Assembly (NCBI GenBank): GCA_028289585.1 | Contig: JANQPI010000029.1 | Location: 12,169-76,168 of the forward strand | Length of the DNA stretch: 64,000 bases | DNA from: Candidatus Zixiibacteriota bacterium | Lineage (GTDB): Bacteria > Zixibacteria > MSB-5A5 > GN15 > FEB-12 | Direction: 5' to 3' | Shown here: positions 4,245 through 6,172 of the stretch, piece after piece | Position numbering within the stretch: position 1 is the first letter of the stretch | Layout: each line of letters starts with the position of its first letter | Program-made: the position numbers and the translations under genes | Notes under the pieces: model-generated | The model's database searches: none | Seen by the model: only the letters and a program-made list of their open reading frames with translations | What the model was told of the DNA's origin: nothing

Positions 4245-4273
4245 TTGACATTGAGAAATAATCGTGTTACCCT
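4245..4273 (+). promoter_or_regulatory. Sigma70-type promoter of the retron locus
   Basis: TTGACA (4245-4250), 17 nt spacer, TACCCT (4268-4273) with an extended TG. An AT-rich UP-like tract lies upstream. Confidence 0.6.
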
Positions 4274-4279
4274 GTGTCG

Positions 4280-4660
4280 TAATCAGTGACATGATCTTAA
4301 CTCGGTCAGGTCACCCTGCTCTTTCACAACTAAATGGCTCGTGCTAGTGGTGGATTGTGGTGCTAGTGCCCGCTCGCTTTTGCGAGCGAATGAGGGGCAT
4401 TGGGCCCCGCTCTCACGTAGCGAGAGTGAATGTTGAATCCAAGGTGTGCTCCCGCGCCGGGATGCCCCGCCGAGGGCTTGCCCCTTGACGCGTCCGCCCT
4501 GGGGTGGCGCCGAGTCGATGAGTTATTGTTTTCTTTTTGTTCTCGGTAATCAAGTTTGGATAAGACATTCGAGTTTTGACCAACTTTGGATTGGTTAACT
4601 CAGTCATCGGGAGCGCGTTCTAGTTTGAGCGCGTCAAGCTCTCACTAAACCACAACACAT
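4280..4660 (+). ncRNA. Putative retron msr-msd non-coding RNA
   Basis: Bracketing imperfect inverted repeat TTGTGGTGCTAGTG (4355-4368) / CACTAAACCACAA (4643-4655). Hairpins CGCTCGC-TTTT-GCGAGCG (4371-4388) and CTCTC..GAGAG (4410-4426). Long-range pairs CTTGACGCG (4484-4492) / CGCGTCAAG (4630-4638) and TGAGTTA / TAACTCA. Boundaries are approximate. Confidence 0.6.
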
Positions 4661-4680
4661 TTTCGATAGGAGGTTCCCTT

Positions 4681-5016
4681 ATGGGAGACTTTGAGTTTCG
4701 GCACAAGCACGAGCTGGAGTGGCTTGAGTTTCAGGAGCACGTGCACGAGGTAAAAAACCTGATTGGACGTGCGATTGCCTTAAAACGGCAAAGCAAAAGT
4801 CACCACGGCTTGGCAAGTCTTGAACAAGCCCAAAAGCGCTGTGAAACGCTTTTGCGGAGAGCTAAATCACGAGAGATTTCTCGCGATCAGCTGGTCTCTT
4901 GGACTGTAGTCTTTGCTATTGTTCTGCGGATATTGTTGAAGATCTGTTTCCCTTCTGACTGCATACAGCGGGAGTTTTTCCCATATGACAATATCGTACA
5001 TCATTCGGCTGCTTAG
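4681..5016 (+). CDS. Small helical protein, putative retron effector (SP-like)
   Basis: Strong SD AGGAGG at 4668-4673. 111 aa, predicted helical, with a hydrophobic segment (WTVVFAIVLRILLKICF). No recognisable family. Confidence 0.6.
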   Translation: MGDFEFRHKHELEWLEFQEHVHEVKNLIGRAIALKRQSKSHHGLASLEQAQKRCETLLRRAKSREISRDQLVSWTVVFAIVLRILLKICFPSDCIQREFFPYDNIVHHSAA

Positions 5017-5278
5017 GCATGCACAAGGTTTAACGCAGTCGGAAATGGCGGATCGATTGAACGTATCAAGGCCGTATCTTTCAGCTCTAGAATCGGGTAA
5101 GGTAGAGCCCGGAATGTCAGTTCTGAAGCGCATCTCTCAAGAATTGGAGATACCGCTTGGCGTTTTAGTATCTCTCGATGATAAGGGAGCAGCGGAATTC
5201 TCAAAAGAGGCCCGAGAGTTTTTGGCAGATCTTGTAAAGGGCATTGTTCTGGGTGGCGAAGATCAAGACCAGAAGTGA
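4985..5278 (+). CDS. XRE/Cro-C1 family helix-turn-helix protein (retron-associated)
   Basis: IRLLRHAQGLTQSEMADRLNVSRPYLSALESGKVEP is a typical HTH_3 signature. Confidence 0.92.
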   Translation: MTISYIIRLLRHAQGLTQSEMADRLNVSRPYLSALESGKVEPGMSVLKRISQELEIPLGVLVSLDDKGAAEFSKEAREFLADLVKGIVLGGEDQDQK

Positions 5279-5284
5279 TCAGTT

Positions 5285-6172
5285 ATGTTGAAACTAAGAA
5301 GTGTTGAGCATTTATGTTACTTTTTGAATCTACCTGAATCACGAATCATCGAATTGTCTACCAATTCACAGCGTTACTACCGAAAGAAACTGCGGCAGAT
5401 TAAAGGCAAGGTAAGAACAATATCGATTCCCAATAGATCTTTGAAGCCTGTTCTTAGAAAGCTTAATGACTCACTTCAGTCGCTGCCCATACATCCCTGT
5501 TTCCATGGGGGAATTGCTCGCAGAAGTATCAAGACACATGCTGGTCGACATACCAGTAAGCAGGTGGTTCTAAGTCATGACATCAACGACTTCTTTCCGT
5601 CTGTCGGAGAAGCGATGGTGATTAAGTGCTTTCGACAGCAGCTTCATTGCTCGCAAGGAGTGGCAGATTTACTGGCCGGACTGGTATGCTGTGATGGGTG
5701 TCTGCCCCAAGGTTCGCCCGCCAGCAGTATTGTAGCAGCATTGTGTTTAACTCCATTAGCTAGGCGGCTTGAATCGTTCACCAAGCACAGACGTCTTAGA
5801 CTAAGCATCTATGTGGATGACATCACTGTTTCGGGTAACGAAAAGGACATGAAGAGAGCGGAGCCCATACTCTTGCAAATCATAGAACAGGAAGGGTTTA
5901 CCCATAACGTCAAGAAGCGTTCATACCAACAATCTGACGAGGTCCAGACTGTAACGGGACTGGTTGTTAACAACGGTCTTCGAATTCGTGCCGAGTATCT
6001 CAGAGACATTGACCGTAGCCTTATGGAAGCTGAACTTGATCTGCTTCGCGGAGTGCGCTTGACGGCATCGAGACTCAGGACAGTCTCTGGGAAGATCGCG
6101 TATGTTAGCTCGATTGAGCCCGATAAGGGGTTGGCTCGTCGGCAGCGACTCAGGGAACTTGTTGAGGTTTAG
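5285..6172 (+). CDS. Retron-type reverse transcriptase
   Basis: RT motifs DINDFFPS, LPQGSPASS and YVDD, retron region-X-like HAGRH (NAxxH variant) and region-Y VTGLVVN. 295 aa, with no maturase or endonuclease domain. Confidence 0.92.
   Translation: MLKLRSVEHLCYFLNLPESRIIELSTNSQRYYRKKLRQIKGKVRTISIPNRSLKPVLRKLNDSLQSLPIHPCFHGGIARRSIKTHAGRHTSKQVVLSHDINDFFPSVGEAMVIKCFRQQLHCSQGVADLLAGLVCCDGCLPQGSPASSIVAALCLTPLARRLESFTKHRRLRLSIYVDDITVSGNEKDMKRAEPILLQIIEQEGFTHNVKKRSYQQSDEVQTVTGLVVNNGLRIRAEYLRDIDRSLMEAELDLLRGVRLTASRLRTVSGKIAYVSSIEPDKGLARRQRLRELVEV

Follow-up and report, generated by a model that had tools for sequence, protein, structure and literature searches.

We found that the stretch of Zixibacteria DNA analysed here (64,000 nucleotides, hereafter the window) contains what is probably a horizontally acquired type VI retron, that is, a four-part anti-phage cassette acting by abortive infection. 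The cassette is a new and very divergent example of the known type VI retron and not a new type of system. It comprises a structured RNA and the genes for a small protein (SP), an HTH protein and a reverse transcriptase (RT), the three genes being co-oriented as the initial annotation had stated:

4681-5016, + strand: SP open reading frame, 111 aa
4985-5278, + strand: HTH open reading frame, 97 aa
5285-6172, + strand: RT open reading frame, 295 aa

The SP and HTH reading frames share an overlap of 32 nt, and the RT gene starts at 5285 after the HTH stop at 5278. We took the features of type VI from the classification of Mestre et al. (2020) and from PADLOC retron_VI: a Cro/C1-type HTH from the type VI cluster that immediately precedes the RT gene or overlaps it, a small helical SP with a hydrophobic C-terminal core upstream of the HTH, and a structured RNA upstream of and into SP, with inverted repeats and the RBS in a hairpin. 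For retron RTs in general we took YxDD and regions X (NAxxH) and Y (VTG). All of these were found, the RNA structure as a prediction and region X with a deviation at its N. Judged from reading frames and motifs, the cassette looks intact, and its anti-phage activity is predicted on that basis.

The cassette lies between uvrC and xseA in the Zixibacteria genome, and the RT stop abuts the xseA start. Its GC content of 42-51% forms a trough between flanks of 57-70%, and the genome holds a single RT. The cassette was not found in the uvrC-xseA interval of 12 relatives, and a related RT occurs in 9 of the 285 genomes of the phylum. Taken together, these four observations suggest that the cassette is a foreign insert. 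A search for a tRNA, an integrase or a flanking repeat marking the insert returned none. The host had been given as probable FCB/Zixibacteria, which agrees with the 56-61% identity of XseA to proteins of Candidatus Zixiibacteriota and FCB MAGs. The contact between the RT stop and the xseA start was also considered as a functional link to Exo VII. A conserved association was rejected because XseA is absent from 22 retron loci and because xseA-xseB-ispA occurs without a retron in the 12 relatives.

The region upstream of SP had been described as a promoter followed by a structured leader of about 400 nt. The following elements were located there and at the beginning of the SP gene:

4247-4275, + strand: promoter-like site, with TTGACA at 4247-4252, a 17-nt spacer and a weak -10 box, TACCCT, at 4270-4275 after TGT
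4283-4680, + strand: structured non-coding leader, about 400 nt, msr-msd-like; the predicted hybrid RNA continues into the SP coding sequence
4286-4314, + strand: 5' hairpin of the MFE structures, with copy 1 of the direct repeat TTAACTCGGTCA in its loop
4318-4329, + strand: conserved 12-mer GCTCTTTCACAA, the sole exact GCTCTTTSACAA match in the window
4337-4349, + strand: a1-like arm GCTCGTGCTAGTG of the 13-nt inverted repeat I2, with 92% complementarity to 4702-4714
4371-4427, + strand: three msr-like hairpins around TGAGGGG (4391-4397), namely P1 4371-4388, P2 4394-4408 and P3 4409-4427
4428-4570, + strand: candidate msd stem-loop, 143 nt, GC-rich, in the MFE and centroid folds
4671-4676, + strand: RBS of SP, AGGAGG, 4 nt before the ATG; 7 nt, TTCCCTT (4674-4680), after the GGAGG core
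4674-4687, + strand: start-codon hairpin TTCCC-TTAT-GGGAG, which holds the ATG, in the MFE and centroid folds
4702-4714, + strand: a2-like arm CACAAGCACGAGC, within SP codons 8-12

Folding supported the structured leader. The segment 4283-4760 folded better than 100 of 100 dinucleotide shuffles (z -4.19, 0/100 shuffles equalling it), and the stretch 4270-4690 gave a z of -2.99. Rfam searches at a permissive threshold yielded only chance-level matches and no retron family. The promoter assignment held in part: the TTGACA box is conserved and occurs at the equivalent position in three related loci (L091, L092 and L093), whose -10 boxes are better, but the -10 box of the window is weak and a sigma-70 consensus scan found no full promoter. 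The direct repeat TTAACTCGGTCA (family D10) has its two copies at 4297-4308 and 4595-4606. L004 and L092 carry the identical 12-mer at the same position relative to the SP start (-337 to -362), and L093 matches it at 11 of 12 positions there. A 'terminator' reported by the terminator scan at 4674-4687 was discarded, as it is the start-codon hairpin of SP.

The three msr-like hairpins were compared with those of related loci. MAFFT placed the hairpins out of register, so independent folds and Infernal re-alignment were used. Nine loci, each folded independently, have the three-hairpin topology in common, and 4371-4427 is the only match in the window to a hairpin descriptor, which had been widened post hoc to admit the window and finds 0.26 matches per shuffled window. 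The hairpins of the relatives covary, with double changes in 12 of 18 pairs and a score of 0.547 versus 0.289 (0/500 shuffles). Two covariance models, R1 (from 4 relatives) and R2 (from 10), detect the msr-like element of the relatives at 16-72 bits. On positions 4369-4430 of the window they gave 7.8 and 8.6 bits (E ~3.6, rank 13 and 10), which is not significant, and they did not detect the element in the more distant RT loci L117-L124. Since the models fail on the hairpins of the window, homology of the leader RNA is only partly shown; for the hairpins, the agreement with the relatives is one of topology and position only. The msd-like stem-loop that follows has base arms (I3) at 4428-4442 and 4556-4570 and is the candidate template of the reverse-transcribed DNA.

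The a1- and a2-like arms bring the beginning of the SP gene into the leader structure. In the predicted fold, the helix between 4337-4349 and 4702-4714 encloses both the RBS and the start codon of SP. A second GTGCTAGTG copy at 4360-4368 is an alternative pairing partner; the centroid fold contains the 4337-4349 pairing, and the MFE fold uses the second copy. Helices at the same position, made of other sequences, were found in L002, L004, L091, L092, L093 and L100. The helix is thus kept with differing sequences in six relatives (Fisher p 1.8e-4), and the distance from a1 to TGARGGG is constant at 43-45 nt in four loci. The helix comparison was a contiguous-helix test, used in place of an RNAduplex energy test over long zones that was uninformative for GC-rich loci.

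The initial annotation had called the small protein unrecognised. SP indeed matched no family in Pfam, PADLOC or NCBIfam, and a k-mer-seeded homology search returned only SP itself, but an exhaustive profile search uncovered an SP family of 101 clusters in 1.84 billion representatives. Compared by hhalign with a 52-member family profile from which it had been excluded, SP matched at 88.6% (E 2.6e-6). By these profile comparisons, SP is a divergent member of a three-helix protein family of about 100 clusters. An AF2 model (pLDDT 72.8) predicts three main helices at residues 2-38, 44-62 and 68-89 and a low-confidence tail. The hydrophobic helix, residues 71-90, has a KD(19) of 2.2; it is led by W-T and resembles the hydrophobic helix in the small proteins (51-55 aa) of type VI loci from Proteobacteria. 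The HTH protein is of the Cro/C1 type with a C-terminal helix extension. Its best PADLOC model was HTH_VI (3.3e-22), a full-length match covering positions 2-87 of 92; the second-best HTH model reached 2e-9. In Pfam it matched HTH_3 at 9e-15.

An SP-HTH-RT arrangement with a hybrid RNA has been characterised in two type VI retrons, Retron-Vpa2 of Vibrio parahaemolyticus (Zhang et al., 2025, bioRxiv 10.1101/2025.10.22.683967) and Retron-Sen3 of Salmonella enterica, SP cluster cl2075 (Garcia-Rodriguez et al., 2026, bioRxiv 10.64898/2026.04.27.721009). Thus, the small protein of the window corresponds to the known SP toxin component. In the studied type VI retrons the HTH binds RT and RNA, neutralises SP and restrains reverse transcription, and the systems respond to phage recombination proteins or to inhibition of RecBCD. 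By analogy with Vpa2 and Sen3, SP is the presumed toxic effector and the HTH protein the presumed antitoxin and repressor of reverse transcription; from the same two systems we infer msDNA synthesis, triggers and defence. In retrons generally, msDNA is RT-dependent multicopy single-stranded DNA for which the 2'-OH of a branching G serves as primer.

We propose the following course of events. A single transcript, probably starting near 4283, would carry the msr-msd-like RNA and then the SP coding sequence, with the HTH and RT genes downstream of SP. In the resting cell, SP would probably be kept harmless in two ways. First, the helix between 4337-4349 and SP codons 8-12 would, together with the local hairpin, bury the RBS and the start codon. 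Second, the HTH protein would neutralise SP and hold reverse transcription down, as in the studied type VI retrons. Upon phage infection, the RT might copy the 4428-4570 stem-loop into single-stranded DNA, or SP might be freed from the HTH protein. Synthesis or release of SP would follow, and the hydrophobic C-terminal helix of the protein would stop the growth of the infected cell.

Vpa2 and Sen3 disagree on the mode of toxin control, and we considered whether the window follows Sen3. SP would then be constitutive and checked solely by HTH binding, the single-stranded DNA would be constant, the trigger (e.g., loss of RecBCD-type surveillance) would be post-translational, and RNA pairing would only tune expression. 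This is how Retron-Sen3 operates, and neither RT nor ncRNA is needed for its HTH-SP pair to act. The C-terminal helix extension of the window HTH, which is covered by HTH_VI, corresponds to the SP-binding helix in the Sen3 models, and the SP reading frame has a strong, consensus RBS. This RBS and the ATG, however, lie inside a local hairpin and the domain closed by a1 and a2, and Sen3 belongs to the proteobacterial cl2075 lineage, far from the clade of the window. The enclosed SP start and the covariation of the helix in the relatives suggest control at the RNA level, as in Vpa2. We regard purely HTH-based control as a real but minority possibility.

The type VI assignment itself draws on the RT and on the related loci. 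The motifs YVDD, HAxxH and VTG given for the RT were read both in the sequence and in alignment A1, as HAGRH (5537-5551), LPQGSPAS, YVDD (5810-5821) and VTG (5951-5959). The RT matched Pfam RVT_1 at 3.7e-15 and retron families of NCBIfam at 1e-38 to 1e-45, versus 1.8e-6 for group II and 7e-6 for Drt3a. Its best PADLOC model was RT_VI with 2.1e-61 and 205.7 bits (III-A, 178.3 bits). Non-VI retron RTs, however, score 182-215 bits on RT_VI and true type VI RTs 241-329 bits. The window value lies within the non-VI range, so that typing by HMM alone is weak.

In a tree of 38 RTs, built without type IV or V references and without the published type VI subclades, the window RT fell within a 25-member clade (support 94/98) of environmental, HTH-linked RTs. 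The sister group of this clade consists of seven type VI references of the HTH-RT kind from Proteobacteria (100/99), and both together are separated from types III-A, I-C and XI with support of 98/90. The placement in a retron phylogeny that the initial annotation had called for is, within this set of references, next to type VI. The window RT has a long branch (1.57), which joins another long branch, and shares <30% identity with the type VI RTs of Proteobacteria that were compared. Even the nearest RT among 5.8 billion proteins is only 34-40% identical, so that an analysis of purifying selection lacks close relatives for comparison.

Related loci were collected, in part with a search seeded with 12 closer RT sequences. 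An SP-like reading frame, an HTH gene and an RT gene occur together in nine of them (L002, L004, L091-L094 and L098-L100), with 286-304 nt between the SP and HTH starts in the seven loci measured. In L006 and L097, an SP-like reading frame lies directly upstream of the RT gene and no HTH was called. A wider set of loci (L002, L004, L091-L094, L097-L100, L113 and L116) shares the SP family, the RT clade and the leader layout with the window. As in the window, the a1/a2 helix of the related environmental loci reaches into the first SP codons, and an HTH_VI-type HTH was found in nine of the loci examined, with HTH_VI matches of 1e-18 to 2e-20 among the relatives. They differ from the window in that their RTs are at most 40% identical to that of the window, that the covariance models detect their msr-like hairpins, and that none adjoins xseA. 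The SP family fills the same slot in every related locus, which makes the window SP the equivalent of the SP toxin of type VI. The type VI-like architecture proposed from the gene layout was thus corroborated by HTH_VI and RT_VI as best PADLOC models, the sister position of the RT to type VI, the conserved SP slot and the structured leader. As a separate observation, relatives adjoin defence genes, namely ThsB-TIR, caspase, PIN, Peptidase_U49, and MTase with HNH.

Rather than belonging to type VI proper, the clade of the window could be a sister lineage deserving its own subtype: an environmental RT clade of PVC, FCB and candidate phyla with HTH and a longer SP (93-151 aa), whose ncRNA and mechanism may differ from those of Vpa2 and Sen3. 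The clade is indeed separate from all seven proteobacterial type VI references, RT_VI scores are at the level of cross-matches, SP length is roughly double that of the described SPs (51-79 aa), the SP reading frame usually overlaps the HTH start, and the hosts are Zixibacteria, Planctomycetota, Verrucomicrobiota, Hydrogenedentes and Zipacnadia. Yet the HTH matches HTH_VI specifically, and an inner type VI sublineage would also appear as a sister in a small tree. Moreover, SP clusters cl2075, cl2760, cl3272 and cl3897 have been published, and two lineages of the published type VI tree lie outside our sample: one from Bacteroidetes (cl2760) and one called 'Large', which is heterogeneous and covers a broad range of taxa. 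We therefore consider a subtype apart from type VI rather unlikely.

A related proposal, which we put forward tentatively and would not call probable, keeps the clade within type VI. The window and about 25 relatives may form a type VI sublineage, as yet undescribed, from uncultured bacteria of the PVC and FCB groups and of candidate phyla. Its SP would be a long three-helix protein (93-151 aa) in place of the SPs of 51-79 aa known so far, and the priming-type helix would have its downstream arm within the first SP codons. If so, opening or reverse-transcribing the helix would coincide mechanically with the exposure or destruction of the translation start of the toxin, and reverse transcription would be coupled to toxin synthesis more tightly than in Vpa2 or Sen3.

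The non-canonical region X noted in the initial annotation bears on whether the cassette still works. The A and H of NAxxH are kept in HAGRH, and the replacement of N by H is real and unique among 20 clade members; but it is a minor change, because Y stands at this position in three of the approximately 27 clade members compared (P0017, P0021 and L006). One could take this substitution, the long terminal branch of the RT, the msr-like hairpins too divergent for the family covariance model and the weak -10 box as signs of a decaying or domesticated remnant, with open genes but msDNA synthesis and defence lost. Such a remnant is improbable. All three reading frames are intact and of family-typical length, the RT keeps every column that is invariant in the 20-sequence clade alignment, the cassette has a strong RBS, a stable RNA fold and a preserved a1/a2 helix, and the low GC content suggests recent arrival rather than long decay. 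Finally, the idea of a DRT/UG, Abi or group II intron RT lying by chance beside an unrelated HTH gene draws on the generic RVT_1 match and nothing else, and is highly implausible given retron models at 1e-38 to 1e-61 versus group II at 1.8e-6, Drt3a at 7e-6 and Drt2 at 1e-3, the retron VTG motif, a protein of only 295 aa with no maturase or endonuclease domain, an HTH_VI-specific partner conserved across the clade, and the concordant results of PADLOC, NCBIfam and the RT tree.

To our knowledge, type VI retrons have so far been studied in Proteobacteria only (Vpa2, Eco12 and Sen3). The proteobacterial plasmid loci, for example those of Acinetobacter pittii pApiA45Pb (NZ_CP139358.1) and Azospirillum lipoferum AZO_p4 (NC_016587.1), have a small reading frame (51-55 aa), an HTH gene and an RT gene in the same order as the window and with overlaps. 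Their small proteins contain a W-led hydrophobic helix like that of residues 73-90 of the window SP, but the two N-terminal helices are absent from them. The RTs of these loci make up the sister clade and score far higher on RT_VI (241-329 bits) than that of the window; their HTH proteins match HTH_VI at 9e-35.

Retron-Vpa2 shares with the window the gene order ncRNA-SP-HTH-RT and a single hybrid RNA made of an msr-msd part and the SP coding sequence. [quoted passage not shown] The Vpa2 SP, however, has 55 aa, whereas that of the window has 111 aa. Retron-Sen3 has the same set of SP toxin, HTH antitoxin and RT, roles that are presumed for the window by analogy. Its ncRNA lies within ~280 nt of the SP start and has terminal inverted repeats, which we count as a likeness, its internal stem-loop (SL3, candidate DNA template) measures ~166 nt versus 143 nt in the window, its SP RBS sits in the basal stem, and an N-terminal extension precedes the hydrophobic core of its SP, as in the window. 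Sen3 differs in its RT subclade, its proteobacterial hosts and its SP of 79 aa. Its constitutive single-stranded DNA and post-translational control were shown by experiment.

We conclude that the locus opens no new class of system. Together with its clade it carries the four-part design into Zixibacteria, Planctomycetota, Verrucomicrobiota and candidate phyla, where RT identity is as low as about 28-35%, SP is twice as long and a covarying helix reaches the first SP codons. Set beside Vpa2 and Sen3, it thereby offers a distant point of reference for the question of which features type VI retrons require, be it a toxin start enclosed in RNA, a C-terminal helix of the HTH or a hydrophobic SP core.

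The predicted cassette starts with a structured leader and continues with three ORFs encoding a 111-aa small protein (SP), a 97-aa Cro/C1-type protein (HTH) and a 295-aa reverse transcriptase (RT). As the initial annotation had described, the ORFs are co-oriented and closely packed on the plus strand (4681–6172). The features are listed below, with the retron RNA parts msr and msd assigned by likeness.

Features of the retron cassette (window positions)
4286–4314, plus strand: 5′ hairpin (predicted fold)
4318–4329, plus strand: 12-mer GCTCTTTCACAA, single occurrence in the window, same position in the related loci L004 and L092
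4337–4349, plus strand: a1-like arm, pairs with 4702–4714
4371–4427, plus strand: three short hairpins around TGAGGGG (predicted fold)
4428–4570, plus strand: GC-rich, msd-like stem-loop of 143 nt (predicted fold)
3′ of the stem-loop, plus strand: further hairpin holding copy 2 of a 12-nt direct repeat (predicted fold)
SP start, plus strand: RBS and ATG of SP inside a small hairpin (predicted fold)
4681–5016, plus strand: SP ORF, 111 aa, no Pfam match (ORF listing)
4985–5278, plus strand: HTH ORF, 97 aa, Pfam HTH_3 (9e-15)
5285–6172, plus strand: RT ORF, 295 aa, Pfam RVT_1 (3.7e-15)

According to the ORF listing, the SP and HTH genes overlap by 32 nt. The SP RBS, AGGAGG (4671–4676), lies 4 nt upstream of the ATG, and its GGAGG core is followed by the 7 nt TTCCCTT. 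The RT motifs named previously were all located in sequence and alignment, with HAGRH at 5537–5551, YVDD at 5810–5821 and VTG at 5951–5959. The proposed promoter fared less well. A consensus scan revealed no sigma-70-type promoter; a TTGACA box (4247–4252) is followed by a 17-nt spacer and TACCCT. A promoter based on this element is plausible, albeit weaker than claimed, because three related loci have TTGACA at the corresponding position and combine it with a better –10 box.

A non-retron RT was excluded, because the NCBIfam retron models (1e-38 to 1e-45) far outscored those of group II (1.8e-6) and Drt3a (7e-6). In line with the suggested type VI architecture, the best PADLOC models were HTH_VI for HTH (3.3e-22, near full length) and RT_VI for RT (2.1e-61, 205.7 bits; runner-up III-A, 178.3 bits). 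We calibrated the RT_VI score on plasmid loci. Seven proteobacterial HTH–RT loci reached 241–329 bits, with no other RT model at E 1e-50, and RTs of types III-A, I-C and XI cross-scored with 182–215 bits. Thus, the score of the window RT is at cross-hit level, and typing by HMM alone is weak. The phylogeny was more informative: in an IQ-TREE analysis of 38 RTs, with type VI represented by the seven proteobacterial references and types III-A, I-C and XI as the only other retron types, the window RT fell inside a 25-member clade made up of environmental RTs (support 94/98) whose sister was the type VI references (100/99), both together standing at 98/90 against III-A, I-C and XI. The window RT has a long branch, joined to another long branch, and its closest relatives among 5.8 billion proteins searched were 34–40% identical.

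A sequence search for SP returned no word-level homologue. All related loci read, however, carry a 93–151-aa ORF with its own RBS in the SP slot. The order SP-like ORF, HTH, RT was found in nine loci (L002, L004, L091–L094, L098–L100); the ORF mostly runs into the HTH gene, and the SP and HTH starts are 286–304 nt apart in the seven loci measured. In L006 and L097, no HTH was called between the SP-like ORF and RT. When 1.84 billion representatives were searched with a profile of seven SP-type proteins, 101 clusters matched, including 33 at E ≤1e-10. The window SP aligned colinearly over 87 columns with a 52-member profile built without it (hhalign 88.6%, E 2.6e-6). The AlphaFold2 model (pLDDT 72.8) has main helices at 2–38, 44–62 and 68–89 and a low-confidence tail. 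Residues 71–90 (LVSWTVVFAIVLRILLKICF), the hydrophobicity maximum of the protein, resemble the W-led helix of the 51–55-aa SPs of proteobacterial type VI loci. From the shared slot, the profile match and this likeness, we conclude that the protein labelled "unrecognised" corresponds to the SP toxin of type VI retrons and carries a predicted two-helix N-terminal extension. Pfam has no model of the family.

L006, from a genome of the window's family, comprises at 938–2490 an msr-like RNA (40–60 bits) and a 109-aa SP-like ORF that directly overlaps RT, HTH being absent. This natural HTH-less variant would be informative on what restrains SP.

In line with the structure ascribed to the leader, none of its shuffled versions folded as well as the native sequence (z –2.99 and –4.19). 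The a1 arm is complementary over 13 nt, with one mismatch, to 4702–4714 (a2-like arm), corresponding to SP codons 8–12. This pairing is present in the centroid fold, whereas the MFE fold pairs the second copy of GTGCTAGTG, an exact direct repeat at 4341–4349 and 4360–4368, 19 nt apart, that offers two possible partners for the SP-codon arm. The differing folds hint at alternative RNA states, and the repeat could serve as a conformational switch. Separately, 4484–4492 and 4630–4638 (CTTGACGCG / CGCGTCAAG) show perfect 9-nt complementarity, joining the interior of the msd-like stem-loop to the hairpin that precedes the SP RBS by ~40 nt; it offers an alternative to both local structures, with which it would compete.

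A helix joins the a1 and a2 positions in six relatives with unrelated sequences (CGTGCCGG/CCGGCACG; AGCTGGTAG/CTACCAGCT; CCGCTGTTG/CAACAGCGG; CCAATGTGCTTT/AAAGCACATTGG; and two more; contiguous-helix test against shuffles, Fisher p 1.8e-4). In four loci, the a1-like arm ends 43–45 nt before the TGARGGG motif. The three-hairpin topology is common to nine loci, each folded independently. An Infernal alignment of the hairpins from 12 distinct relatives had 91.7% of cells paired and double changes in 12 of 18 pairs, with a covariation score of 0.547 (shuffles 0.289, 0/500; slid controls 0.09–0.16). Covariance models of the msr-like element, built from four and then ten relatives, scored up to 72 bits on seed loci and 16–60 bits on non-seed loci, the latter including new ones from Zipacnadia and Sedimentisphaerales. 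On window positions 4369–4430 they gave 7.8 and 8.6 bits (E ~3.6), ranking under several chance matches, and they likewise detected no msr-like element in the more distant RT loci L117–L124. The window hairpins deviate by a ~4 nt shorter linker, by TGAGGGG instead of TGAAGGG and by a P2 of just five pairs; the layout of L004, judged by eye, has a similarly short linker. A hairpin descriptor, widened post hoc, matched the window solely at 4391 (0.26 matches per shuffled window). For the RNA in the window, the evidence thus consists of fold stability, a1/a2 pairing and the 12-mer and layout in common with relatives, and does not include a significant model match. The top window match of both models (16.8 and 18 bits, E 0.02–0.05) lies at 59021–59069, has TGAAGGG without P2 and is most likely due to chance.

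The presumed FCB/Zixibacteria host was borne out by XseA, which shares 56–61% identity with its matches from Candidatus Zixiibacteriota and FCB MAGs. The retron lies between uvrC (499–2319), followed by two paralogous OMP beta-barrel genes (2414–3253 and 3464–4114; PF13505 under cut-off), and xseA-xseB-ispA-dxs. Its GC content (42–51%) forms a trough between flanks of 57–70%. In 12 relatives, xseA-xseB-ispA is kept and the retron absent, with 61–76 nt from the uvrC end to xseA in five of them; other Zixibacteria relatives carry one unrelated gene in this variable spot. Over the stretch from uvrC to xseA (499–6174), neither a tRNA or integrase gene nor a flanking repeat turned up. The genome has one RT, and related RTs occur in 9 of 285 genomes of the phylum, the clade's hosts being Zixibacteria, Planctomycetota, Verrucomicrobiota, Hydrogenedentes and Zipacnadia MAGs. 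This patchy distribution looks like that of a transferred gene, as expected for defence. Four related loci (P0008, L097, L098, L002) have defence-type neighbours (ThsB-TIR, caspase and PIN; N6/N4 methyltransferase and HNH; Peptidase_U49; UvrD-type helicase), unlike the window copy, which stands alone amid housekeeping genes.

Only 1 nt separates the RT stop codon (TAG, 6170–6172) from the xseA ATG (6174), and the sole RBS-like GAGG for xseA falls within the final RT codons. The xseA and xseB genes, which encode Exo VII, match Pfam with 7e-89 and 1.5e-18 (junction region, window 6160–7638). Exo VII matures the msDNA of Retron-Sen2 and Retron-Eco9. A conserved retron–xseA association was nevertheless ruled out: XseA was missing from the neighbourhood of all 22 other retron loci, and the 12 relatives have xseAB-ispA with no retron beside it. 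The contact is probably an insertion accident, which probably couples xseA expression to that of the retron.

The design is known from two preprints. Retron-Vpa2 produces a ~470-nt hybrid RNA of msr-msd and translationally repressed SP; SP is silenced by HTH and the non-coding part of the RNA, and recombination proteins of phages increase the amount of msDNA, which in turn lifts the repression of SP (bioRxiv 10.1101/2025.10.22.683967). Retron-Sen3 makes both SP and ssDNA constitutively; its HTH neutralises SP at the protein level, and RecBCD inhibition is the trigger (bioRxiv 10.64898/2026.04.27.721009). Because the SP RBS and ATG are predicted to be buried in a covarying closed domain, resembling the RNA-level control of Retron-Vpa2, we lean slightly towards such control in the window, where HTH would additionally neutralise SP. 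Control as in Retron-Sen3 seems rather unlikely. Since the SP–HTH–RT and hybrid RNA design has already been described in the two preprints, the cassette is best classed, by its sequence, as a very divergent new member of type VI, and could turn out to represent a sublineage, marked by its long SP, that has yet to be described.
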